Assembly: GCA_038046645.1 (NCBI GenBank) | Contig: JBBSVU010000025.1 | Coordinates: forward strand, 1 to 13,792 | Reading direction: 5' to 3' | DNA: 13,792 nucleotides | Source: an archaeon | Lineage (GTDB): Archaea > Iainarchaeota > Iainarchaeia > Iainarchaeales > 0-14-0-20-34-12 | Part shown: positions 51-13,790 of the stretch, in pieces | Layout of the letters: every line of letters starts with the position of its first letter | How positions within the stretch are numbered: position 1 is the first letter of the stretch | The notes under the pieces: model-generated | Database searches by the model: none | What the model was told of the DNA's origin: nothing | The model's input: the letters and a program-made list of their open reading frames with translations, nothing else | Translations under genes and position numbers: made by a program

Positions 51-431
51 TCAGCCTAAAAGAATAACATTATTTAATCCTTTGAAATGTTTGTCGCTTG
101 TTACTAATACTGCATCATTAGATTCAGCTGTTGCCTTTATTGTAGCATCTATAAATCCTAATCCATATTTTACAGTGAGATCTGCAGCTTCTAATGCTAT
201 TGAGCCATTAAGATCAATAACTGTATTGTATTGCATTATTTGGGCGACAGCTTCAAGGGCAATTTGTTCATTTTTAGTTGCCCTTATTTTTTTGTAAACT
301 TCATAAAGTATGACAGAAGATACTAGATACTCTTTCTTATTTGCCTTTTCAATGTATTTTGCATATTTATCTGCTAGGGGTCCATTTGTAAAATATTCTA
401 TCCAGCCATAGCTGTCAACCAAAACGCTCAT
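51..431 (-). CDS. vapC: PIN-domain ribonuclease toxin (VapC family)
   Basis: 126 aa with PIN acidic motifs VLVDSYGWIEYF, LYEV, FIDATI, VTSDKHF; overlaps the upstream antitoxin gene by 17 nt. Confidence 0.93.
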   Translation of the reverse strand: MSVLVDSYGWIEYFTNGPLADKYAKYIEKANKKEYLVSSVILYEVYKKIRATKNEQIALEAVAQIMQYNTVIDLNGSIALEAADLTVKYGLGFIDATIKATAESNDAVLVTSDKHFKGLNNVILLG

Positions 432-807: not shown

Positions 808-1020
808 ATGAAGACTATTGCAGTTAATGATAATACCTTCCAATTACTCCAAACTTTGAAGGAGAAGGAAAAAGCGCCATCTTTTGATGTGCTTATCCTA
901 AAAATCGCATCAAAGGAGAGCAAAGTACCTAATTCCATGCTTGGTGCTTTGAAGGGCAAGATGAAACCGTTTTCTGAGAAAGATAGAAAGAATTTGTGGG
1001 AAGATAGGGAGCGGGTATAA
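808..1020 (+). CDS. vapB: Antitoxin, archaeal VapB of the KTI-x-V (RHH/DUF217-like) type
   Basis: 70 aa, MKTIAVNDNTFQLLQTLKEKEKAPSFDVLI pattern; its stop overlaps the start (TAATG) of the following PIN gene. Confidence 0.8.
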   Translation: MKTIAVNDNTFQLLQTLKEKEKAPSFDVLILKIASKESKVPNSMLGALKGKMKPFSEKDRKNLWEDRERV

Positions 1021-1400
1021 TGAGAATTGTTTTAGACACGTTTGCATGGGTTGAATACTTCACTAATCCTAAACGAGGAAAGGTTGTTGAAGATTATTTT
1101 TCAGATAATGAGATTTTTACCCCTGAGATTGTTCTGATTGAGCTTAGCTGCAAAGCATCTAAAGAGGGCTGGGCTTTTGATAAATGTCTTCATTTTATAA
1201 AGGCTAAATCTTCAATTGTCTCCTTTTCTGAAACTCTTATCAAAAGTGTCGGCAATATTTACGTAAAATTAAAAAGGAGGAACCAAAACATAAGCTTGGC
1301 TGATGCGATAATTTATACTACGGCTATTCTTTGTGAGGCAAATGTGCTTACCGGAGATAAACATTTTAGGGGATTAGAGAATGTCTTATTCTTAGATTAA
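1020..1400 (+). CDS. vapC: PIN-domain ribonuclease toxin (VapC family)
   Basis: 126 aa; VLDTFAWVEYF, LIEL, LADAII, LTGDKHF motifs. Confidence 0.93.
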   Translation: MRIVLDTFAWVEYFTNPKRGKVVEDYFSDNEIFTPEIVLIELSCKASKEGWAFDKCLHFIKAKSSIVSFSETLIKSVGNIYVKLKRRNQNISLADAIIYTTAILCEANVLTGDKHFRGLENVLFLD

Positions 1401-3601: not shown

Positions 3602-3624
3602 TTTTCTAATTAGTACTTTATTTT

Positions 3625-4107
3625 TTATTTTATTTTTTCAAAAATTCCTTTTTTTACATTCTTTTTTGCATTGCTCCATTTTAATATTTGGCCGTTCATT
3701 GTGATATAAATGCCGCGTGGAATTGTCTGAACCTTGCTTACGGCACATCCTAAATTAAACAAAGCGTCAGAATTATCCTTAGCATAGGGAACCATTGAAC
3801 CAGTCAATACTATTGTTTTATTTTTTATTCCTTGTCCAAGAAATCTGGCAGTTTCTGCCATTGTAAATGTCCCATGCGTAATAATTATTTTATCTTCCTT
3901 GCATTGTTTGCATTTTTTCAGAATTAGTTTTCTGTCAGAATCAGTTAAATCTCTGCTGTCTTTTAACATTAATTTTTCAGTATTTATCTCCAAAGTTACG
4001 TTAGCTTGTTTTAGCATTTTAGGCACATGTGTTTTCCTTGATTTAAGTTTGCGATCATTGTCGATATTGTCAATTGTGCCGCCTGTGATGAATAGTTTTA
4101 TTGCCAT
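3625..4107 (-). CDS. Short asparaginase N-terminal-domain protein
   Basis: ITGGTID, DSRDL, ITHGTFTMAETA, LTGSMVP, DALFNL motifs; 160 aa, no C-terminal domain. Confidence 0.85.
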   Translation of the reverse strand: MAIKLFITGGTIDNIDNDRKLKSRKTHVPKMLKQANVTLEINTEKLMLKDSRDLTDSDRKLILKKCKQCKEDKIIITHGTFTMAETARFLGQGIKNKTIVLTGSMVPYAKDNSDALFNLGCAVSKVQTIPRGIYITMNGQILKWSNAKKNVKKGIFEKIK

Positions 4108-4174
4108 GATATATTGCTGTTTTTGGTTTTATTAATACTTTCTAAATGTTAAACCCTAAAGTTTACTTTTTTCA

Positions 4175-4210
4175 TTCAGCGGAAATCTGCTCTTTCATTG
4201 CATTTATAAA
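4175..4210 (+). promoter_or_regulatory. Conserved upstream cassette with TATA box (copy 1), before the LAGLIDADG gene
   Basis: TTCAGCGGAAATCTGCTCTTTCATTGCATTTATAAA; 30/36 identical to 9393-9428; TATA ends 21 nt before ATG 4232. Confidence 0.8.
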
Positions 4211-4231
4211 TCAGAAAATTCGATTTTAATA

Positions 4232-5266
4232 ATGAAAGCAGTTGTAACCTTTAATCAGTTTATCAAGGCTTTTCCAACAGTTACTGAAAAAAGTAAAAAG
4301 TTGGCTAGGAAAATTCTTCCCCTGTATCCCTCTGTTGAATTAGCCCAGATTGTTGGAGCGCTTTTAACTGACGGGCACGTTGATTGGTATACTTCTGATG
4401 GGATGCCAAGAACACGACAAATTCGATTATATTCTAGTAATAAGGCCGAATGTATCTGGTTTGTTGAGCTGTGCAAAAAAGTTTTTGGGGTAAAAGGCAA
4501 GGTTGTTGCATATATCCCAAAATATGGAAAATTCAAATTGCAGCCTTACAAAGCAATAGTAAACAAAGCTGTTGTTGCTAGGATATTAATTCTTGCGGGG
4601 GCTGTTGCCGGAAATAAATCAAATCAGGGTTATAAGATCCCAGAGTGGATTATGTATTCCAACACAGAAATTAAAATAGAGTTCCTTAAAACTATTTTTA
4701 CGTTTGATGGCTCAAAACCATACCCTAGAAAAAATACATGGACAATTCATTACTCTGCTAGTGTAAATCCGAGATATTTGGAGACTACCCTAACTTTTTT
4801 TGAACAGCTTAGATTCCTGTTGGCCCAATTTGGGGTAGTTATGGGTGAAAATCCTACCAAATACCATAAACTTAATGGGAATGTGATGGTTATCACATCA
4901 ATATCCTCGAGAAAATCAATAACTAATTTTTATCGATTTATTGGTTATCTTAATCCAATAAAACAAAAGCGCTTAGAATTCGCAGTTGCTAATATAAGTA
5001 GATTAGCCAGAGTTAAATGCAAGACCAATCTTTTAGAAAATATGAAGAAAATATTTGGCACAGATACTGATACTCTGGGTTTTATAAATGTCTTTTTATG
5101 TTCTAACTATACTTATCGACAATTCGAACATTTTAGAAGAGGGGAGTCAGTAATTCCCATTGAAATATTGGCTCTTGCTGAACGGATAACCGAACGAAAA
5201 ATTACTCTTCCATTATGGATTGATTTTTTGATATCTCGTTTTATCGTTCCCTCTCTCCAGATATGA
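4232..5266 (+). CDS. Free-standing two-motif LAGLIDADG (intein DOD-type) homing endonuclease with possible C-terminal HTH
   Basis: Motif 1 ELAQIVGALLTDGHV; KIPEWIM...IEFLKTIFTFDGS motif 2; FYRFIGYLNPIKQKRLE typical DOD end; no intein splicing termini seen; C-terminal YTYRQFEHFRRGESVIPIEIL looks HTH-like. Confidence 0.85.
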   Translation: MKAVVTFNQFIKAFPTVTEKSKKLARKILPLYPSVELAQIVGALLTDGHVDWYTSDGMPRTRQIRLYSSNKAECIWFVELCKKVFGVKGKVVAYIPKYGKFKLQPYKAIVNKAVVARILILAGAVAGNKSNQGYKIPEWIMYSNTEIKIEFLKTIFTFDGSKPYPRKNTWTIHYSASVNPRYLETTLTFFEQLRFLLAQFGVVMGENPTKYHKLNGNVMVITSISSRKSITNFYRFIGYLNPIKQKRLEFAVANISRLARVKCKTNLLENMKKIFGTDTDTLGFINVFLCSNYTYRQFEHFRRGESVIPIEILALAERITERKITLPLWIDFLISRFIVPSLQI

Positions 5267-6347
5267 ATTCCTCTACCATTTGCTTTGCAATAGTTGGGGG
5301 ATAATGATGGGGTGGATGTTTCATAACATATGCTGATATGGATATAAGTGCACCAGAAATCTTTCTATCTAATGCTAGTTTACAGCAACGGATTGCATCT
5401 ACTGCAACGCCTGCAGAATTTGGTGAATCCTCTACACTTAATTTCAAATCAAGATGAATTGGCACATCACCAAACTTTCTGCCTTCAATTCTGATAAAGC
5501 ACAATTTATTGTCTTTCTGCCATGGAACATAATCGCTTGGCCCTATATGAATATTCTCAGCTTCTAAAGGTACTCCTAACATTGCTTGGACAGCTTCAGT
5601 TTTGCTGATTTTTTTGCTTTTCAATCTTGCCCTTTCTAGCATGGATAAAAAATCAGTGTTTCCGCCAGTATTCAATTGATAGGTTCTATCAATCTTTACT
5701 CCTCTTTCCGTAAAAAGTTTAGTTAATGCTTTGTGTGTTATTGTGGCGCCCAGCTGGCTGCAAATATCGTCCCCAATGCAAGGCAGTTTTGCTTTTTCAA
5801 ACTTCTTTTCCCATTCTGCATTTGAAACAATGAAAACAGGCATGCAATTGATGAAAGCTACGCCTGCTTCTAAACAAGCATTTGCATAATACTCAGTTGC
5901 CTGCTGGCTTCCAACTGGCATATAATTAACAAGAACCTCAGCCTTTGCTTTTTTCAATTCATCAGCAACATCCACAGGTTTTGTTTTTTCATCAACCCTG
6001 AAACTCTGGTCTTCAGGATAATCAAGCATATGCGAGGCTACTCCATCTAAAACAGGGCCTTTTTGTACAATTACACCAGTTTTTGGAACATCCTTGCAGA
6101 ATATTTTTGTACAATTAGGTTTTGCAAATATTGCTTCGGATAAATCCTTTCCAACCTTTCTTTTATCCACATCAAAAGCAGCAACAAATTTAATATCCTT
6201 GATTTTATATCCGCCTAAAACATTATGCATCAATCCAGGAATTGCTTCATCGTTTGAATCAACATTTTTGTAATAAAATCTTCCCTGCACAAGTGAAGAA
6301 CAACAGTTCCCAACACCAGCTATTGCAACCCTAATTTCTTTTCCCAC
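5241..6347 (-). CDS. ino1: myo-inositol-1-phosphate synthase
   Basis: VAIAGVGNC Rossmann motif, NYMPVGS, GDDICSQLGAT, YQLNTGGNTDF, KKISKT, HIGPSDYVPW, EDSPNSAG; GTG start with SD-like GGTGA upstream. Confidence 0.96.
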   Translation of the reverse strand: MGKEIRVAIAGVGNCCSSLVQGRFYYKNVDSNDEAIPGLMHNVLGGYKIKDIKFVAAFDVDKRKVGKDLSEAIFAKPNCTKIFCKDVPKTGVIVQKGPVLDGVASHMLDYPEDQSFRVDEKTKPVDVADELKKAKAEVLVNYMPVGSQQATEYYANACLEAGVAFINCMPVFIVSNAEWEKKFEKAKLPCIGDDICSQLGATITHKALTKLFTERGVKIDRTYQLNTGGNTDFLSMLERARLKSKKISKTEAVQAMLGVPLEAENIHIGPSDYVPWQKDNKLCFIRIEGRKFGDVPIHLDLKLSVEDSPNSAGVAVDAIRCCKLALDRKISGALISISAYVMKHPPHHYPPTIAKQMVEEFISGERER

Positions 6348-6408
6348 ATTTTCACCATTTGAATTTCAAAAATACTTTTTGATTATTTCTATGATCTTTA
6401 ATTAATTA

Positions 6409-6450
6409 TGCTATTTTACAGCTATAAAATAGTAGTTAATAGCTATTTAA
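6409..6450. promoter_or_regulatory. Twin AGCT-centred palindromes, putative PadR operators in the divergent ino1/padR promoter
   Basis: CTATTTTA-CAGCTA-TAAAATAG (6411-6432) and AATAGCTATT (6438-6447); centres 21 bp apart. Confidence 0.55.
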
Positions 6451-6474
6451 ATAATTTTCCACTCTTTTTTATTC

Positions 6475-6792
6475 ATGCAGCTTGACGATTCAGCAGAATT
6501 CAAAAGGTTTGATAGGAAACTCACAAAGGAATTGCTCTGGCTTTATATTCTTTCAATCCTGAAAAAGAAAAATATGCATGCATATGCCTTGCGTTCTGCA
6601 ATACAAAAAAAATTCGGTTTCTTGCCGGGGAATGTTACCGCCTATGTTGTGCTTTACAAATTGCAAAGCCGCAATTTTGTAAAAAAGAAAGCGTCAGGAA
6701 ATAGGGTTATTTATTCCATTACTCAAAAAGGAAAAGGATTGTTAAAAGATGCTAAAAATTATTTGGAGAAAAGAATCAGATTGATTTTTTGA
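6475..6792 (+). CDS. PadR family winged-helix transcriptional regulator
   Basis: LYILSILKKKNMHAYAL...PGNVTAYVVLYKLQSRNFV...RVIYSITQKGK pattern. Confidence 0.9.
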   Translation: MQLDDSAEFKRFDRKLTKELLWLYILSILKKKNMHAYALRSAIQKKFGFLPGNVTAYVVLYKLQSRNFVKKKASGNRVIYSITQKGKGLLKDAKNYLEKRIRLIF

Positions 6793-6816
6793 TTTTTTGA
6801 AAAGATTTCTTTTTTT
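6785..6816 (+). terminator. Oligo-T tracts, probable archaeal intrinsic terminator of padR
   Basis: Runs T6, T6 and T7 at and just after the stop codon. Confidence 0.4.
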
Positions 6817-6902
6817 GCAAAGGATTAATTTCTTCATGTGCCACTGCTGCTGGATTTTGGTTTATTGCGCTGTTTTTATCTTTTTTGCTGCATTATTCTT
6901 TT

Positions 6903-7820
6903 ATGCCAGATATACTTCGCAAGTATCTTGATAATAGAAACTTGCCTTTGTCTAAATCTGTTGAGGATACATTAAATACTGTTTTGGAGGATTTGGCAAA
7001 GCAGCCTGAGAATATGAAAGACGGGCTTTTTAGGCCTGAGCTGATTTCTTCATGTGCGGTTGCTTTGAATGGTTTATCCCGAATTAAGGACCCTGTTAGG
7101 CTTTTCAGGAATTTAGGTTTGGTTTTTGAAAAAAGGGCAGAATGTATTTATACAAGAACTGTGGCTAATGCATTTAATCGGCTATACTTGGATGCAGTTA
7201 AGCAGAAAAAAGGAAAAGAGGTTTTGGGTGTCTGGCTTGGTTTTGAGAATCCTTTAACCAAGGCATATGCAAGCAAATATGTTCCTATTAAAGAATTGAA
7301 AGTTCTTCTTTCTCACCCTAATCATGTTGTTAGGGGTGTTGCTTCTAAGGTTTTAGGTTTACGCAAGGATTTTTCTGTTAGGCGTGCAAAAGCCATTTTT
7401 TCAAATCCAAAGTCTAATGGTCTAGTTATTTCAGGTGTTGCTGAAGGTCTGGCTTTACGTAGAGATTTTTCTATTAGAAGATTAAAAGCCTTTTTTTCAC
7501 ATCCTAATGACAGGGTTAGGTTTGGTGCTGCTAATGTATTGGTTTCTAGAAAGGATTTTTCTGTTAAGGAATTGAAAGGTCTTTTGTCTCATCCTGAACC
7601 TAGTGTTAGATGGAAAGCGGCAGAAGCTTTAGTCTCACATAATTATGTTTCCGCTAAAGAGCAAGGTGAATTTTTTTCCCATCCTGATGAGATGGTTAGA
7701 TCAGGTGCAGCTGCCGGTTTAAACCCTAAGGAAAGTAAATCTAGATTAGCGCACATTCATGGCAAAAGAGGTTATAGAAAAAGAGAAATGAAAAGGCGCA
7801 CTCGTCAGCTAAGGCTTTAA
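6903..7820 (+). CDS. HEAT-like repeat protein with basic C-terminal tail
   Basis: Five repeats of about 30-32 aa (e.g. ELKVLLSHPNHVVRGVASKVL, RLKAFFSHPNDRVRFGAANVL, ELKGLLSHPEPSVRWKAAEAL); ATG 6903 preferred over TTG 6885. Confidence 0.8.
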   Translation: MPDILRKYLDNRNLPLSKSVEDTLNTVLEDLAKQPENMKDGLFRPELISSCAVALNGLSRIKDPVRLFRNLGLVFEKRAECIYTRTVANAFNRLYLDAVKQKKGKEVLGVWLGFENPLTKAYASKYVPIKELKVLLSHPNHVVRGVASKVLGLRKDFSVRRAKAIFSNPKSNGLVISGVAEGLALRRDFSIRRLKAFFSHPNDRVRFGAANVLVSRKDFSVKELKGLLSHPEPSVRWKAAEALVSHNYVSAKEQGEFFSHPDEMVRSGAAAGLNPKESKSRLAHIHGKRGYRKREMKRRTRQLRL

Positions 7821-7908
7821 AATTTTTTTGAATAAGCACAATAAACTAATTTGAATTTAATCAAAAATTTTTAATATTAAAAACAAATTTCAATTAACCG
7901 CAATTTGA

Positions 7909-8385
7909 TTAACTTCTTCTTGGAGTAGTTCTCCTTGTTTCTTTTCTTTTATCCCAAGCTTCTTTTACTGCTTGATAGCCTTTTTTCCCTGCTTCAGCAG
8001 CAAATCTTCCTGCTTTTTTTAAATTTTCAGGCCCTGCAGCTGCAGCACCTAAAGCTACTGCCCCGCCATAAGGCGGATACAATAATGCCCCTCCAACCCC
8101 GGCACCGATCATTGCAGCTTTTCTGGCAGTTTCACCTGTAGCCCTGCCTTTTCTCCAGCCTCTTTTTCCTTTGGCATAAACATAAGCAGCACCTGCGCCT
8201 GCTGCAGCACCAACCCCTCTTTTTGCAACCTGTGATGCAGCTTCTTCAACAGTATTTGCTACATTAGCCCTAAAATTTGGGCTTACTGCCATTGCAGTTC
8301 CAAATGCAGCAGCTCCTGCTATCCCTGCAATAATTGCAGCCCTTTTTACTTTCTGCCCAAATGTCCTTCTTCTCGGCCTTGGCAT
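7909..8385 (-). CDS. Hypothetical Gly/Ala-rich basic membrane-associated protein (glycine-zipper-like)
   Basis: 158 aa; Arg-rich N-terminus, hydrophobic AAIIAGIAGAAAFGTAMAV, GxxxG runs; GCA-rich host-like codons; purine-rich GAGATGGT upstream. Confidence 0.75.
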   Translation of the reverse strand: MPRPRRRTFGQKVKRAAIIAGIAGAAAFGTAMAVSPNFRANVANTVEEAASQVAKRGVGAAAGAGAAYVYAKGKRGWRKGRATGETARKAAMIGAGVGGALLYPPYGGAVALGAAAAGPENLKKAGRFAAEAGKKGYQAVKEAWDKRKETRRTTPRRS

Positions 8386-8464
8386 TTTACCATCTCATTT
8401 CAATCTTTTGATAAATAAATATTTTCCCAATGTTTTAAATATTGGTTCTACTGAAGGTGTGAGG

Positions 8465-8593
8465 TTATAACTCTGCAAGTTCTTTGTAAAATTCTTTATA
8501 TTCTTTCATATGTGCCTTTACTATGTTTTTTATGTCCTTCCATTCTGCCATTGTAATAGGCTCTCTTTTCCCCTTTATCTTCATTATTTTCAT
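8465..8593 (-). CDS. Unannotated 42-aa protein, putative Doc antitoxin
   Basis: Hand translation MKIMKIKGKREPITMAEWKDIKNIVKAHMKEYKEFYKELAEL; SD GAGGA at 8601-8605; 53 nt downstream of doc on the same strand; amphipathic C-terminal helix ending ELAEL. Confidence 0.7.
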   Translation of the reverse strand: MKIMKIKGKREPITMAEWKDIKNIVKAHMKEYKEFYKELAEL

Positions 8594-8646
8594 CTAAAAT
8601 TCCTCATTCCTTTTATAATTTCAAAATTTCTGATTTTAAAATTGCA

Positions 8647-9009
8647 TTAACCCTGTCGCGTATGGTTTGCTATCCAAGTTACAATCTCCTCAATGCTTGT
8701 TTTTGGTTTTACTGACCAGACAACAACATTAAACCTTGATGTTTCTCCAACCACTAATTTTTTGCCATTTAATTCCAAAAAAGCCAGCATAGATTCAAAT
8801 GCAGTTCGTTTATTTCCATCAGCAAAAGGATGCCTTCTTGCAATTTCCATAAGAAGGATAGCTGCCTTTCTATCGATTCCTCTTGTATTTGCTACCTTAA
8901 AAACAACATACTCAAGTTCTGCATCACTCCTTAAAATACCTTCATGAACTTGCTTGTTTATGCTGATAATAGCCTCTTTTGCTAGCGTTTTAGCATAAAT
9001 TCTTGCCAT
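8647..9009 (-). CDS. doc: Fic/Doc family toxin (Doc type)
   Basis: HPFADGNKRTA motif (Doc-type NKR); ATG 9009 lies about 25 nt after a TTTAAA TATA-like box. Confidence 0.9.
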   Translation of the reverse strand: MARIYAKTLAKEAIISINKQVHEGILRSDAELEYVVFKVANTRGIDRKAAILLMEIARRHPFADGNKRTAFESMLAFLELNGKKLVVGETSRFNVVVWSVKPKTSIEEIVTWIANHTRQG

Positions 9010-9015
9010 GTATTT

Positions 9016-9034
9016 ATTCTGTAAATTACAGAAT
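9016..9034. promoter_or_regulatory. Perfect palindrome, putative operator of doc
   Basis: ATTCTGTAA-A-TTACAGAAT between the TATA-like box and the doc ATG. Confidence 0.55.
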
Positions 9035-9117
9035 TTAAACATATCGCCATCTAAAAGGGCATATGGTTTAGCATTGCGAATTTGTAGCAGTTATGTTCCT
9101 TAACTATTTTGCTAATA

Positions 9118-9267
9118 TTACCCTTTAATTAAAAGAATTATCCCTAATGCCAAAAATATCAATCCTATATATGGCGTTGCAATATCCACAGGGGCAGGCA
9201 AAACCTTCATCCCTGTTCCAACAGCAATCCCAATCATGAATAATGCAACAGCATGCCTATCAGCCAT
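9118..9267 (-). CDS. Unannotated 49-aa two-TM small membrane protein
   Basis: Hand translation MADRHAVALFMIGIAVGTGMKVLPAPVDIATPYIGLIFLALGIILLIKG; strong SD AAGGAGG just upstream; host-like codons. Confidence 0.8.
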   Translation of the reverse strand: MADRHAVALFMIGIAVGTGMKVLPAPVDIATPYIGLIFLALGIILLIKG

Positions 9268-9392
9268 AATATCCCTCCTTTAGTGAATAATAAATAATTG
9301 AATTTTATGCTAGTAATCTTAACCGTGTGAGCGAGAAATCTACCGCCTTTAGACTGTAGATGAAAGTGAACTCCCAACAGTAATCCTTCCTG

Positions 9393-9428
9393 TTCAGCGG
9401 AAATCTACTCTCTCACAGTCTTTATAAA
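9393..9428 (+). promoter_or_regulatory. Conserved upstream cassette with TATA box (copy 2), before tnpB
   Basis: TTCAGCGGAAATCTACTCTCTCACAGTCTTTATAAA; TATA ends 23 nt before ATG 9452. Confidence 0.8.
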
Positions 9429-9451
9429 GCCCAAAAAGCTTTTATTTGTGC

Positions 9452-10582
9452 ATGTTGCTCACATATAAATTTAGGATATATCCCTCAAAGCAACAAGAAC
9501 AAAAACTATTTTTTGTTTTGGATAAATGCCGTCTTACATACAACAAACTGCTTGAAATATTAAACAAACAAAATAAAATAAATCAAGCAGAGATACAAGC
9601 AGCAATACCTAAACTAAAAGAACAATATCCAGAACTAGATGGAATATACTCCAAAGTACTGCAGTATGAATGTTATAGGCTCTTTTCAAATCTACGGGCA
9701 TTGTCAAGGCTAAAGAAGAATGGAAAGCATATAGGCTGTTTAAGGTTCAAGGGAAAAGACTGGTTCAAAACATTTACTTACAACCAGTCAGGCTTTGTTC
9801 TTGAGATAAAAAATAAGAAATATAACAAGTTAAATCTCTCAAAAATAGGTTCTCTTTCGATAAGAACCCACAGAATAATAAATGGAGAAATAAAGCAGGT
9901 GCAGATAAAGCGAGAATGCTCAGGCAAATGGTTTGCCTTATTATGCATTTATATTACCGAACAAAAAAAGCCAAAATCAAAAACAAACAAATCAATTGGC
10001 ATAGATTTAGGAACAATAAACTTCATTTATGATTCTGATGGAAATCATATTGATCATCCTATGTTTCTTAATAAATCATTAAAGAAGCTAGCAGCAGAAC
10101 AGAGAAAACTTTCTAAGAAAAAGAAAGGCTCAAGCAACAGAATAAAACAAAAAATAAAAGTAGCTAGAGTGCATGAAACAATCTGCAACCAAAGGAATGA
10201 TTTCCTGCATAAGCTATCAAGAAAATATGTAAACAACTATGATTTCATAGCAGCAGAAGATCTGAATATAAGAAGCATAATAGAAAAATCATATTCAGCA
10301 AAATACATTATGGATGCGTCTTGGAACTCTTTTTTACTGATGTTGAAATACAAGGCTGAAAGCGCTGGTACTTCATTTGTAAAAGTAAACCCAAGGGACA
10401 CAACAAGCAAGTGTTACAAGTGCGGAACAATAGTTAAAAAACCATTATATGAAAGAATACATAAATGTGCTTGCGGTTTTGAAATAGATCGAGATTACAA
10501 TGCAGCATTGAATATATTAAAATTGGGTCTGGACAAGGCCTGTATGCCTTTGGAGCTTCTCAATAGAGAAGCGATGAATTAG
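9452..10582 (+). CDS. tnpB: TnpB RNA-guided DNA endonuclease
   Basis: TYKFRIYP N-terminus; RuvC-I IGIDLG, RuvC-II AEDL, zinc finger CYKC...CAC, RuvC-III DRDYNAALNI; all three catalytic acids present. Confidence 0.96.
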   Translation: MLLTYKFRIYPSKQQEQKLFFVLDKCRLTYNKLLEILNKQNKINQAEIQAAIPKLKEQYPELDGIYSKVLQYECYRLFSNLRALSRLKKNGKHIGCLRFKGKDWFKTFTYNQSGFVLEIKNKKYNKLNLSKIGSLSIRTHRIINGEIKQVQIKRECSGKWFALLCIYITEQKKPKSKTNKSIGIDLGTINFIYDSDGNHIDHPMFLNKSLKKLAAEQRKLSKKKKGSSNRIKQKIKVARVHETICNQRNDFLHKLSRKYVNNYDFIAAEDLNIRSIIEKSYSAKYIMDASWNSFLLMLKYKAESAGTSFVKVNPRDTTSKCYKCGTIVKKPLYERIHKCACGFEIDRDYNAALNILKLGLDKACMPLELLNREAMN

Positions 10583-10636
10583 GAAGCCACGGGCTTTAGC
10601 CTGTGGAGGATGTCACTAACTAAGTTTTATTTAAGC
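10520..10636 (+). ncRNA. Predicted TnpB omegaRNA (reRNA): scaffold to 10616 plus flanking guide of about 20 nt; 5' boundary uncertain
   Basis: Stems GGTCT/AGGCC (10526-10540), GCTTCTC-AATA-GAGAAGC (10555-10572) and the right-end hairpin (10587-10606), ending in TCAC; position matches known TnpB reRNA architecture. Confidence 0.7.
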
Positions 10637-10655
10637 TTTGCTTAGAATATACTAT

Positions 10656-13600
10656 ATGGCAGGTACTTTAAAATATGGCATTTTTCTGCTGGCCCTTTTA
10701 TTTTTAATTAGCGGCATTAATGCCCAATTCTGCGCTTCGAATGAAGAATGCCTTACCAACCAAGAATGTTTGGCAGGCATTTGTGTTCCATCTGAGGAAA
10801 ATGATGTCTGTTTCCAAAATGAAGATTGTGCTTCAGGCCTTGTTTGCAAGGAAGGGATTTGCCAAAAACAAAGCAAAGGGTTAGGTGCATTAGCTAAAAA
10901 TATTGCAGAAGCCCAGCCAATTTATGCTGTTGGCTCAGCAATAATAAAAAAAATTAAAAGCTGTGAAAGCCCAGCAGATTGTACTCCGGAAAAAGTTGGC
11001 GGCAAATTAGGCTATACCTGTTTAGATAAGTCCTGTGTTGAAGGCTATGATGGTTATCCCTGTTTTGGTGCAGATAATTGTTTAGGTGGGATATGCAGTG
11101 CTTCTGGTTTTTGCAGTTCTATCGGCGGTGAAGGTTATGCATGTTCTGCTGATTCAGGTTGCCAAACAGGTTTTTACTGTTCAGAGAATTCCTGCAAGGA
11201 TTCAGCAGTTAATGTAAAGGTATTTTTTGCTGAAAGCCAATATCTGAAACAAAGGAGATATGCTGCATTTTTGGAAGGGTTCCATCCTTTGCTTAAGGAT
11301 AATTTCAGCAAGGATAAAAAAAATCCGATTGTTTTAACTGTTTCAGAAAATGTCCCAAACAGCTATTATTCAAATTATTTGGTATATCCAAAGGTTTCTT
11401 ACCCTATTTCAGGCCTCGCATTGGATCTTTCTTTTGGCTCGCAGAACAAGCCAGATGTTTCTTTTAAAGGTTTAAACCCTGCAGGTTTTACTGTAAAGCT
11501 TACAGGAGAACAAGAGCCCTATTTTTTAGAGCTTATTTTTAATTCTGACAAAAAGGATGCGATAACGCAAGGAAAAGTAGTAAAGAAGATCTCTGGCAGC
11601 ATTATTTTTACCTATTCCAAGTTATGGCCTGCAAAGGAAATAGAAATACCAGTAATTATTTTTAACAATCCCTGTAAGATTGAAGCAGCAGAATCTGAAA
11701 CAGCACAGACATACTTAGATCTAATTGAATGTTATGATGCAAGGATAGCAGCAGCAAAGGTAGATTATGCTGCTGAATACAAAAAGGCAAAGCAGGCATT
11801 TGATGGCAATCTGTGGAAGTTTGTAGAAGAAAAGCCTGTTTATTTTGTAAATTTTGCAACGCTAAAAGAAACACTTGAAAGATACAATAAATTTGATTAT
11901 TGGGGCATTAAAAAGGCGTTATTTGAATCAGATTCCATTGTCGTAAGGGATGAGCAGGAGCTTTTGGGCAAGAAAAGTGTTCAGGCAGAACTTGCATCGC
12001 AATTTATGCTGCTTGAAGAAATCCCTGATAAATACGGCAATTTTGTAAATAATGCATTTTCAGATAAATTGGCTATTTATTCAGTATTGGAAAATGAAAT
12101 CCCAAAACTGCCAGAAGAAACAAAAAAAGAGTTATCTTCAGTCATTGTTCAGGATAAAAAAGTTACTCAAGCAGCATTAAACAAATGGGCAGCAGAAAAA
12201 AAGATGATGAAAGACCCGTTTGATAAAGCTAACAGGGATGAATATATTGCAAAAATAATAGAATTGGAAAAAACAATAATAAAAGACACTTCCTATAAAG
12301 TTTCATATTCTAATACTCAATTGACAGATTTGGAAACAAAGCTGCAAGAGGCTGCAAAGAAATATAGGGCTGCATTGTTAAGTGATGCACAGGTTTCAAC
12401 CGCAGAAAATGAATTGAAACAGGTATTAAATGAAATTTTGGATGGGCATTATGGTTCTGCCACTGAGATAATAACGAAATTTGAGGCAGAAATAAAAAGG
12501 CTTGAGGAAGAATCTGCAGCATTAAAGAATTCCCTTACCAATTCCATAGGCCTTGATTCACTGCAATCACATGCAATAAATCCTCTTACCTGGGTTGGCA
12601 AGCCGTTTGAATTACTTGGCGCGTTAATATTTGGCGGCTCTGCATTCGCATCAGAAGAGGAGATTGCAAAAGCCAAGTCAAAGGTAGAATACAGGATTGA
12701 ATCATTGGAAAAACAGAGGTATAATTTAATTAACCACATAATTCCTGAATTGGGCAAAGGTAAATCTTTGTTAGGTATTTCTGCTGATATTACCTTAAAG
12801 CTTAAAAATTTCGCTTCAGATTCAGACTCGCAGAAATTTAAAGAATTTGATTCTGTGCTTGAAACATTTGAGAATAATGAAGTAGTGAGGACAGAATACA
12901 GGAAGCAGCATCTGCTTTTGAACAAAAGTTTCTTGCTTGATATGGCTGATGCATCAACATATTTTTCTACATTGCATGCGCTTGAGCTTGAAAGGGATAC
13001 CCTGCTTGGCACAGAAATTCTTTTGACTGCGCAGAAAGAGGAAATACTGGAAGGCAAAGAGCTGAGGGAAGAAAATTTAGTAAATTTGATTAGGAGAGTA
13101 GTTAAGGTTTCAGAAGATGAGGTTCAGCAAACAATATCGCTTGCGAATAAACTTGGTGAAGAAAGAAAAGGGATTGAAAAAATATTAATGCAGTTGAATT
13201 TAGGAACGCCTTTGGCTGAAATTGTTGATGCAAACAAAACATTGAATAAAACGGATTTTGACCTTGTCGAAGGATACTTCTTGAGAGTAAATAATGAAAT
13301 TTATATTTTGCTGCAGGATTATGATGAGGAAACAAATGAAGCTACAATAAGGGCTTTCCAGAATGGAATAGGAAAAACACAGATTAAGGCAAAGGTTGGT
13401 GAAACAGTTTCTTATCCTGAAATTCCAGGATTATCAATTGCATTGGAAAGCCATAGCAAGGAAGGTGTCACTGATATTATAAAAGCAAGGATAGTGCACA
13501 ATTCCTCATGGAAAGAAAAACCTCTTACCGCCTGGAATTTTACAAACAGGATTGTATTTGATGTCCCAAAAGCAGGGGCGTATGTTGCAATTGATTTAAG

Positions 13601-13790
13601 TGATGAGAAATACGGTGTTGAATCCCCGCATATCTATGTTTTGTTTTCAAATGGCGGCATAAGTTATAATCAGGCTGTGAAAGAAATAGAGGAGGAAGGA
13701 AAAAGCCTTCTGGATTTGTATGATGAAATACTTAAATTTTTCAGAGGAGTATCCGGAATCAGGGATAAAGGCAGAGTTGCAATATATTAG
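10656..13790 (+). CDS. Large secreted/surface protein (1044 aa) with N-terminal Cys-rich repeats and long helical/coiled-coil region
   Basis: Signal peptide MAGTLKYGIFLLALLFLISGINA; about five C-x4/5-C...C-x4-C modules; Glu/Lys/Leu-rich helical middle; internal hydrophobic segment; TAG stop at 13788-13790; TATA-like TTTATTTA about 25-30 nt upstream. Confidence 0.8.
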   Translation: MAGTLKYGIFLLALLFLISGINAQFCASNEECLTNQECLAGICVPSEENDVCFQNEDCASGLVCKEGICQKQSKGLGALAKNIAEAQPIYAVGSAIIKKIKSCESPADCTPEKVGGKLGYTCLDKSCVEGYDGYPCFGADNCLGGICSASGFCSSIGGEGYACSADSGCQTGFYCSENSCKDSAVNVKVFFAESQYLKQRRYAAFLEGFHPLLKDNFSKDKKNPIVLTVSENVPNSYYSNYLVYPKVSYPISGLALDLSFGSQNKPDVSFKGLNPAGFTVKLTGEQEPYFLELIFNSDKKDAITQGKVVKKISGSIIFTYSKLWPAKEIEIPVIIFNNPCKIEAAESETAQTYLDLIECYDARIAAAKVDYAAEYKKAKQAFDGNLWKFVEEKPVYFVNFATLKETLERYNKFDYWGIKKALFESDSIVVRDEQELLGKKSVQAELASQFMLLEEIPDKYGNFVNNAFSDKLAIYSVLENEIPKLPEETKKELSSVIVQDKKVTQAALNKWAAEKKMMKDPFDKANRDEYIAKIIELEKTIIKDTSYKVSYSNTQLTDLETKLQEAAKKYRAALLSDAQVSTAENELKQVLNEILDGHYGSATEIITKFEAEIKRLEEESAALKNSLTNSIGLDSLQSHAINPLTWVGKPFELLGALIFGGSAFASEEEIAKAKSKVEYRIESLEKQRYNLINHIIPELGKGKSLLGISADITLKLKNFASDSDSQKFKEFDSVLETFENNEVVRTEYRKQHLLLNKSFLLDMADASTYFSTLHALELERDTLLGTEILLTAQKEEILEGKELREENLVNLIRRVVKVSEDEVQQTISLANKLGEERKGIEKILMQLNLGTPLAEIVDANKTLNKTDFDLVEGYFLRVNNEIYILLQDYDEETNEATIRAFQNGIGKTQIKAKVGETVSYPEIPGLSIALESHSKEGVTDIIKARIVHNSSWKEKPLTAWNFTNRIVFDVPKAGAYVAIDLSDEKYGVESPHIYVLFSNGGISYNQAVKEIEEEGKSLLDLYDEILKFFRGVSGIRDKGRVAIY

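Follow-up and report, generated by a model that had tools for sequence, protein, structure and literature searches.

A 22-nt promoter box precedes recombination genes, the tnpB genes of an insertion sequence and LAGLIDADG genes in Iainarchaeales: a putative repair regulon joined by selfish nucleases

The stretch of archaeal DNA analyzed here, called the window, is 13,792 nt long and makes up all of contig C25 (JBBSVU010000025.1) of an Iainarchaeales genome (GCA_038046645.1, hereafter G000; 1.17 Mb, 25 contigs, 35% G+C, 89% complete). It carries two selfish nuclease genes, a free-standing LAGLIDADG endonuclease gene and the tnpB gene of an insertion sequence (IS), each preceded by a 36-bp cassette made up of a 22-nt sequence (the box), a 6-nt spacer and a TATA box. 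The features on which the argument draws are these:

4111-5231, plus strand: 1.12-kb cassette with the box, the TATA box and nearly the whole LAGLIDADG gene, absent between the same flanking genes in the congener G001
4175-4196, plus strand: 22-nt regulon box, copy 1 (TTCAGCGGAAATCTGCTCTTTC), from the match within the window, the genome pattern and a position weight matrix (PWM)
4203-4210, plus strand: TATA box TTTATAAA of the LAGLIDADG promoter, from the sequence
4232-5266, plus strand: free-standing LAGLIDADG endonuclease gene, 344 aa (LAGLIDADG_3, E 3.5e-7, 30.8 bits against a cut-off of 22.5)
9320-10616, plus strand: TnpB-only element of the IS200/IS605 family, from BLAST to other copies, left-end alignment, loose ends at 9319 and 10616, and contig depth
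9330-9343, plus strand: partial second box core GCGAGAAATCTAC, from the sequence at the IS left end
9338-9361, plus strand: left-end subterminal hairpin, with a 6-bp stem here against 10 bp in the copy on contig C14
9393-9414, plus strand: 22-nt regulon box, copy 2, from the window match, the genome pattern and the alignment of IS copies
9421-9428, plus strand: TATA box of the tnpB promoter, from the sequence
9452-10582, plus strand: tnpB, 376 aa from the ATG (378 aa from a TTG at 9446)
10553-10629, plus strand: IS right end, which holds a hairpin (10587-10606) and weakly matches the RNA family HgcC

Positions 4175-4210 and 9393-9428 align without gaps and are identical at 30 of 36 sites by direct count, with mismatches at positions 15, 20, 24, 25, 27 and 28 and the same first 14 positions (TTCAGCGGAAATCT). 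Both 36-mers terminate in TTTATAAA, at 4210 and 9428, which leaves 21 nt before the ATG of the LAGLIDADG gene (4232) and 23 nt before that of tnpB (9452), for which the TTG at 9446 is a possible alternative start. The 21-nt gap makes it likely that the LAGLIDADG mRNA is leaderless. An initial annotation, made from the letters of the window, had reported the gapless alignment, the common block and the two TATA distances, and all of these were reproduced on recounting. It had also seen the motif before no other window gene, and a search for the 14-mer with up to two mismatches returned just the two sites; shuffling gave a mean of 0.12 matches, with 3 of 200 shuffles reaching two or more. A 14-nt repeat within 13.8 kb is by itself only mildly unlikely, and the cassette is accepted as real because a genome-wide box family exists, with 28 PWM matches of at least 20.9 bits against a best match of 18.3 bits in the reversed genome.

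The box, TTCA(G/C)NGGAAATCYACTCYYC, occurs in promoter geometry at 27 places in the genome, each copy facing the gene that follows, and the operator consensus reads TTCA-G/C-N-GGAAATC-Y-ACTC-YYC. The exact 14-mer is found in the window only; allowing one mismatch gives 16 genome sites, mostly TTCAGGGGAAATCT, and the relaxed pattern TTCANNGGAAATCN gives 26. At 25 of these 26, ACTCYYC is followed by 6-8 variable nucleotides and then, at a constant offset, by a TATA-like octamer. The 28 matches of the 22-nt PWM, which was trained on those 26 sites, are separated from the next match at 14.2 bits, and the control on the reversed genome returned 18.3, 17.4 and then no more than 12.6 bits. One of the 28 (C7:31364, 23.2 bits), which has neither a TATA box nor an open reading frame (ORF) downstream, was not counted as a promoter, leaving the 27. 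Archaeal promoters read by TBP and TFB have an A/T-rich TATA box about 25 nt before the transcription start, with a purine-rich TFB recognition element (BRE) directly upstream. With 6 nt between its end and the TATA box, the box spans approximately -60 to -38 from the expected start, the zone in which archaeal factors affecting TBP/TFB recruitment bind. In 18 of the 27 copies an ORF starts 16-24 nt past the TATA box, a spacing that suggests leaderless transcripts.

The genes behind the boxes form a narrow set. Seven cellular genes have an assigned function: radA (Rad51 Pfam match, 4.6e-92), mcm (1225 aa, with an intein holding a LAGLIDADG domain), herA (1198 aa, HerA/DUF87 match, intein-bearing), nurA (NurA match, 1.6e-13), nre (Nre_N/Nre_C match, 1.3e-78), a gene for a Cas4-like PD-(D/E)XK nuclease (1.7e-8) and a gene for a protein with the fold of family-B DNA polymerases (PolB). 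The selfish genes comprise six free-standing LAGLIDADG genes with Pfam support, that of the window among them, and eight tnpB starts, two of which open complete ORFs inside contigs (on C14 and in the window), one a shortened ORF of 307 aa and five ORFs that run off contig ends; two further boxes lie in mini-IS without tnpB. The other four precede three genes without an assigned function (87, 264 and 56 aa) and a 327-aa gene that looks like a LAGLIDADG gene by eye only. The assigned downstream genes, which according to the initial annotation could have proved functionally random, are genes of DNA metabolism and selfish genes, and no unrelated housekeeping class occurs among the 27 box promoters. 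Within 200 nt upstream of the canonical PolB gene, the DNA ligase gene, two PCNA genes and the two orc1/cdc6 genes, the best score was 0.6 bits. The box set is therefore one of recombination, break repair, MCM and selfish DNA cutters, not of replication generally.

The PolB-fold protein has 504 aa. A structural model built from 29 orthologues (pLDDT 89.9, pTM 0.88) resembles the family-B polymerases of archaea, with a Foldseek E of 6e-13 and a TM by query of about 0.5; every one of the 50 best PDB matches is an archaeal PolB chain or an engineered variant of one, and a language-model look-up agrees with PolB. The protein has no Pfam match even at E 5, a genome search with PF00136 returned only the canonical 886-aa frame, and it is approximately 250 residues shorter than the matched polymerases. 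Judging from the model, it has a PolB fold and is probably not a working polymerase. No significant Pfam family was found for the 264-, 56-, 110-, 61- and 327-aa proteins. An 87-aa box protein has no Pfam match, and its single-sequence model (pLDDT 70.8) gave no Foldseek match at E<=0.001 and VIA-align Z values of at most 5.8; PC4 and Pur-alpha appeared among the weak structural matches only, and neither identity was adopted.

The inteins with LAGLIDADG domains lie in MCM (L003) and HerA (L005:5157-8753), and radA frames of 861-1334 aa in G025, G027, G041, G045, G003, G010 and G033 are apparently intein-interrupted. Since MCM, HerA and apparently the RadA of relatives hold LAGLIDADG inteins, the genes of the set are themselves also carriers of homing endonucleases.

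Several further elements surround the boxes. At the main repair genes the box is immediately preceded by a polypyrimidine/polypurine palindrome (e.g. TTTCTTTTTCTCTTCCTAAGAGAAAAAGAAAAG), in G000 at radA (C6:27745, minus), the 87-aa gene (C6:8319, plus), the 56-aa gene (C6:153961, minus), mcm (C6:121516, plus) and C17:26662 (minus), and in G001 before the genes for MCM, RadA, HerA and NurA (L021, L030, L046, L048). Possible roles of the palindrome are those of a bidirectional T-run terminator or insulator and of a second operator. The identical sequence upstream of radA and the 87-aa gene extends over at least 110 nt and includes further TTTCTCTTTTCTTTCGGCAAC-type repeats. At three places a further, incomplete box core (GGGAAATCT or GGAAATCT) stands 28-55 nt upstream of the main box, namely in the hairpin region of the IS left end (window 9330-9343), before the PolB-fold gene (G000:C6:74239) and before a LAGLIDADG gene (G000:C24, about 11797), making tandem sites possible.

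Both nuclease genes of the window belong to mobile elements. In G001, contig C49 matches window positions 3621-4110 and 5232-5397, and a junction alignment shows that a mere 12 nt or so separate the two matches (empty site at about 760-790 of C49); the asparaginase-like and inositol-1-phosphate synthase genes that flank the cassette in the window are adjacent there. The LAGLIDADG_3 match covers residues 148-238 of the window protein, a second motif (...GALLTDGHV) near residue 40 was recognized by eye and is unscored, and the last codons of the gene overlap the 3' end of the inositol-1-phosphate synthase gene. The gene has no paralog in G000. Orthologues with 59, 52 and 46% identity occur in 3 of the 60 other genomes of the order, in three different families, and each of the three has its own local variant of the box. 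A LAGLIDADG domain and presence or absence at a fixed site with patchy distribution are features of homing endonuclease genes, and the distribution is that of a mobile homing-type gene, which would travel with the host operator or quickly re-acquire it. No DNA contig from four public runs connects the two flanks of the LAGLIDADG cassette or of the IS directly, and no empty-site allele was seen.

The IS is present in at least eight genome copies, has TTAAC directly to its left, and is bounded by contigs from the public runs that split to different flanks at 9319 and 10616, with a many-fold pile-up over the element. It has subterminal hairpins at both ends, no terminal inverted repeats and multiple copies with the same ends, as expected for its family. 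TnpB matches OrfB_IS605 (2.5e-25), Cas12f1-like_TNB (2.1e-21) and HTH_OrfB_IS605 (5.6e-9), all three above cut-offs, and no match to the Y1 transposase TnpA (PF01797) was found in the 89%-complete assembly. The right-end hairpin has 8 bp (-6.9 kcal/mol, z -2.07). Over the right end, where a guide (omega) RNA is expected, the HgcC RNA model (RF00062) scores 26.1 bits (E 0.012), below its gathering score of 50. The box lies 70 nt inside the left end here as against 53 nt in the other copies, the window copy having a 17-nt insertion. That copy 2 of the box falls within the ends of an IS, as first proposed from the window, agrees with BLAST, the alignment of copies and the loose contig ends; it was likewise borne out that copy 1 has no IS hairpin nearby, its likeness to the IS copies being limited to the 43-47 nt of the box region.

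Two mini-elements (G000:C1:61118-61382 and C6:about 211150-211480) lack tnpB but retain the left end of the IS with the box and TATA box and, at the right, the final 75-100 nt; transcription from their box promoter would yield only the guide-RNA-like right end. A joined mini-element form also appears in the public contigs, with joints 9343>10347 and 10369>10521. At least ten contig ends of the assembly are IS copies (the starts of C2, C4, C6, C10 and C20, both ends of C9, and the ends of C11, C16 and C23), and the IS family is the main cause of assembly fragmentation.

The box is conserved at orthologous promoters of relatives. Across G000 and 40 relatives, a strict 18-nt pattern was found in 8 relatives (17 matches in G001, 5 each in G012 and G023 and 1 in each of five genomes), and the reversed pattern was found nowhere. 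The MCM, RadA, HerA, NurA and PolB-fold orthologues of G001 are likewise preceded by the box although the intergenic flanks differ, and positions 5-6 of the box vary there (CAGG, CAGC, CACC). Upstream of radA, the core CA(C/G)(C/G)GG(A/C)A with a TATA box 14-24 nt further on occurs in 19 of 30 genomes of the order as compared to 1 of 30 reversed controls. The PolB-fold gene was found in 52 of 61 genomes, and the core lies at -54 to -67 from its ATG in 26 of 29 promoters, the other three having one-letter variants; information content in these promoters is highest on CACCGGAAAT, with a second peak on the TATA box. From its sequence, the pattern at the radA and PolB-fold promoters is the footprint of a vertically inherited site to which a protein would bind. 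GGAAA and GGCAA core variants coexist within single genomes. The GGCAA variant has 20 matches in G000, none of them at promoter sites, and since the reversed-sequence control is inadequate for 10-mers such as the GGCAA core, variant counts per genome are not numbers of boxes.

Other box-preceded genes of relatives include four LAGLIDADG genes, two different tnpB genes, two DNA methylase genes, a PIN gene, a DUF2204 nucleotidyltransferase gene and an intein-bearing DEAD helicase gene; a TBP gene with a box at an atypical 119 nt was not counted. The box thus recurs before LAGLIDADG orthologues in other families and before tnpB genes of another kind in another family, loci from which, on the initial annotation's account, it might have been absent. 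In many genomes of the order a leader of approximately 90-110 nt separates the box promoter of radA from the start codon (L055-L082, about 130 nt upstream), as compared to a short one of 33 nt in G000 and G001. The long leader has conserved GC-rich hairpin-like segments (e.g. ...GCACCCGCAAGGGGGC...CCAAA...), and a leader RNA element is possible.

Taken together, these results point to a recombination and repair regulon that is controlled by a putative DNA-binding regulator and that selfish nucleases have joined, a reading to which we give a probability of roughly 0.75. The 36-bp cassette would be a complete archaeal promoter module of 22-nt operator, 6-nt BRE-like spacer and TATA box, and the operator would be the cis element of a lineage-wide regulon in one order of DPANN archaea, covering a set for recombination and double-strand-break repair (RadA, HerA, NurA, Nre, Cas4-like nuclease), MCM and the shortened PolB-fold protein. 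A putative sequence-specific protein most likely binds the box just upstream of BRE/TATA and sets TBP/TFB recruitment jointly at these promoters, one regulator for all 27 being the economical reading. The content of the regulon is the ground on which a link to recombinational repair is argued, and the regulon may answer DNA damage or a phase of the cell cycle. With the operator built into the left end of the TnpB IS, and a LAGLIDADG gene that appears to move with it as the 1.12-kb cassette, the nucleases would be made alongside the homologous-recombination machinery of the host, so that their cuts could be converted into copies by homing or by TnpB-assisted IS retention, to the benefit of the selfish elements. 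TnpB is reported to cut element-free sites, after which recombination restores the IS. The initial annotation had proposed that both nucleases respond to one host regulator tied to damage or recombination. This idea gains from the radA, herA, nurA, mcm, nre, Cas4-like and PolB-fold genes that share the box, and changes in that the regulon appears to be primarily one of host repair rather than of homing nucleases.

Several observations weigh against such a regulon. Thirty-two of the 41 genomes have no box of the strict pattern and 11 of the 30 radA promoters of the order have no box, which suggests divergence or loss of the element in some of its genomes. Because the PWM scored sites on which it had been trained, the independent evidence from it consists of the control and the score gap only. 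The box genes of 87, 264 and 56 aa received no function from Pfam or, for the 87-aa protein, from the model, and the 327-aa gene is LAGLIDADG-like by eye only, without Pfam significance. The IS of the window, with its decayed left hairpin and 17-nt insertion, may no longer be mobile. Finally, MCM is in the set and the other replication genes are out of it, so that the regulon may relate to DNA damage, to the cell cycle or to another process.

As the protein that binds the box, an Orc1/Cdc6 paralog can be named only as a weak candidate, one that we would bet against. In Sulfolobus the non-initiator Orc1-2 is described as a damage regulator that binds a promoter element (PMC6061795, in the portion of the text available), and two Orc1/Cdc6 paralogs are present in nearly all of the 61 genomes, in G000 at C6:154398-155522 and C23:8688-9866. 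A divergent box promoter lies within 120 nt of the start of one of them, Orc1-A, at approximately 7 of 28 loci and farther away in G000 and G001, and in G033 and G049 the divergent box beside Orc1-A would drive the PolB-fold gene. Any core match within 300 nt of Orc1-A was found at 9 of 28 loci against 4 of 28 reversed controls, which is too weak to name the regulator. One box lies in the 440-bp region upstream of an orc1 gene of G000. Compared without gaps, TTCAGGGGAAAT agrees at 9 of 12 positions with TTCAGATGAAAC, the core of an S. solfataricus mini-origin recognition box (mini-ORB) oligonucleotide (PMC3089459, seen in part), a match of a kind that can arise by chance, and it includes the TTC...GAA cores that the accessible text on Pyrococcus ORBs stresses (PMC1904270). 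Arguing against Orc1, the adjacency of box and Orc1 is a minority pattern, a search for clusters or pairs of box-like cores in G000 and five near-complete relatives returned dispersed single sites only, and the Sulfolobus hexamer ANTTTC is on neither strand of the box consensus, which has only GATTTC/ATTTCC.

There is also a bolder version, which we hold to be improbable. The order would run a regulon resembling the SOS response or an S-phase program, in which one of the two Orc1/Cdc6 paralogs, turned transcription factor, would read the mini-ORB-like box before BRE/TATA; unlike that of Sulfolobus, the regulon would hold the machinery of recombination itself (RadA, HerA-NurA, Nre, MCM and an inactivated PolB), and TnpB IS, LAGLIDADG, restriction-modification methylase and toxin genes would repeatedly have gained the operator, cutting DNA only when recombinational repair is on.

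Other explanations of the box compete with a regulated repair regulon. It could be a constitutive element of promoter strength, of an extended upstream or BRE-like kind, in which case the nucleases merely carry a good local promoter. The fixed distance between box and TATA box in every copy is what a core-promoter element would show, but a strength element is an unlikely account of a box that occurs at only about 27 promoters in 1.17 Mb, with a narrow and coherent gene set in which all seven function-assigned cellular genes belong to DNA recombination, repair or replication. Such an element would be expected at other promoters too, yet none appears among the 28 matches, and PolB, PCNA, ligase and orc1 are without it.

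It is much less probable that the box is scattered mobile DNA, an IS end or a miniature inverted-repeat transposable element that landed by chance, with the LAGLIDADG gene having captured a tnpB promoter. Ten of the 27 copies do lie in the IS or its mini-derivatives, and the sequence of at least 110 nt shared by radA and the 87-aa gene indicates that promoter regions can be copied within the genome. The copies outside the IS, however, are similar only across a module of 36-47 nt, no IS end or hairpin lies by copy 1, and the presence of the box at orthologous radA and PolB-fold promoters in many families, with diverged flanks, speaks for vertical conservation. Capture of a tnpB promoter, which the initial annotation had offered as its alternative, is not favored by the comparison of copy 1 with its possible sources, as it is 83.7% identical to the radA promoter over 43 nt and 80.9% to the IS copies over 47 nt, and the LAGLIDADG orthologues carry the variant of their own host. 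That the box is an origin-recognition site serving replication (Orc1/Cdc6 loading at dispersed origins) and not transcription is barely credible, since the mini-ORB likeness, the TTC...GAA cores and the box upstream of an orc1 gene are set against boxes that are single, dispersed, gene-oriented and always 6 nt from a TATA box, with no box cluster around an AT-rich region in G000 or three complete relatives, and known ORBs form inverted clusters beside orc1.

Among known systems, a regulated repair regulon with selfish passengers invites comparison with the bacterial SOS response, in which LexA-controlled integron integrases, prophages and integrative and conjugative elements share the repair operator. 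Alike are the single operator for recA-type repair genes and selfish elements and the timing of the latter to damage or recombination. The SOS systems differ in belonging to bacteria with sigma-70 promoters as opposed to TATA/BRE here, the operator is unrelated and there is no LexA here, and the passengers here comprise LAGLIDADG homing endonucleases and an IS that encodes a guide-RNA nuclease, in contrast to the LexA-controlled elements of bacteria. In eukaryotes, the E2F/MBF regulons of the G1/S transition join MCM and RAD51-type recombination genes under one element, as the box does here, where cell-cycle control would be no more than a possibility. TnpB-only elements of the IS1341 type, which encode an omega RNA, have the same TnpB domain set, subterminal hairpins, fixed left flank (TTAAC), high copy number and deletion derivatives that keep both ends; they differ in that the left-end promoter of the IS described here is a copy of the host repair-regulon promoter.

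The Sulfolobales DDRE/Orc1-2 regulon is similar in having a short conserved promoter element and a leaderless gene set (PMC6061795), the box genes here being probably leaderless too. According to the parts of the reports available, the element is bound by a non-initiator Orc1/Cdc6 paralog and the set is switched together after DNA damage (PMC6061795, PMC5817253). The 20-nt MEME consensus from Sulfolobus ends in TACTCWS, which equals box positions 14-20 (TACTCTC) at the same offset and may be a coincidence (PMC6061795). The Sulfolobales regulon differs in that ANTTTC, the hexamer missing from the box, is essential there and in its targets, given in that source as ups, ced and tfb3 (PMC6061795), as compared to radA, herA, nurA, nre and mcm here, known from sequence alone; Sulfolobus repair genes are reported as not induced by ultraviolet light in the text seen of a separate study (PMC2246294). 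ORBs and mini-ORBs have a comparable 12-13-nt core, TTC-N4-GAAA(C/T), and differ in forming inverted clusters round a duplex-unwinding element by orc1 as opposed to single TATA-locked sites across the chromosome (PMC1904270, PMC3089459, PMC1868953, each in part). By analogy of function, the present system would be closest to the Sulfolobales DDRE/Orc1-2 regulon and to SOS with its LexA-controlled mobile elements, and it appears to be a member of neither.

In a literature search that had subscription journals and supplements outside its scope, neither the box nor any DPANN repair regulon was found described, and no tnpB or LAGLIDADG gene was found reported to have its promoter in common with host repair genes. 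The 22-nt operator is sharp and easily scored, and it delineates a putative RadA, HerA-NurA, Nre and MCM regulon in uncultivated archaea with small genomes; the 36-bp oligonucleotide is a concrete probe with which the regulator could be fished out. The 87-, 264- and 56-aa box genes and the PolB-fold gene are candidates for new recombination or repair factors. Selfish genes on a host repair promoter would be an archaeal counterpart of the LexA-controlled mobile elements of bacteria, and they suggest that, by copying that promoter, TnpB and homing endonucleases may keep their cost down and become more successful.

Other genes of the window lie at 51-431 (minus strand), 1020-1400 (plus), 8647-9042 (minus), 6475-6792 (plus) and 10638-13790 (plus). 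They comprise two PIN-domain genes, a Fic/DOC-family gene, a PadR-family regulator and a gene for a large Cys-rich secreted protein, whose first 1050 aa, with a weak DUF7107 match, are encoded before the frame runs off the contig end.

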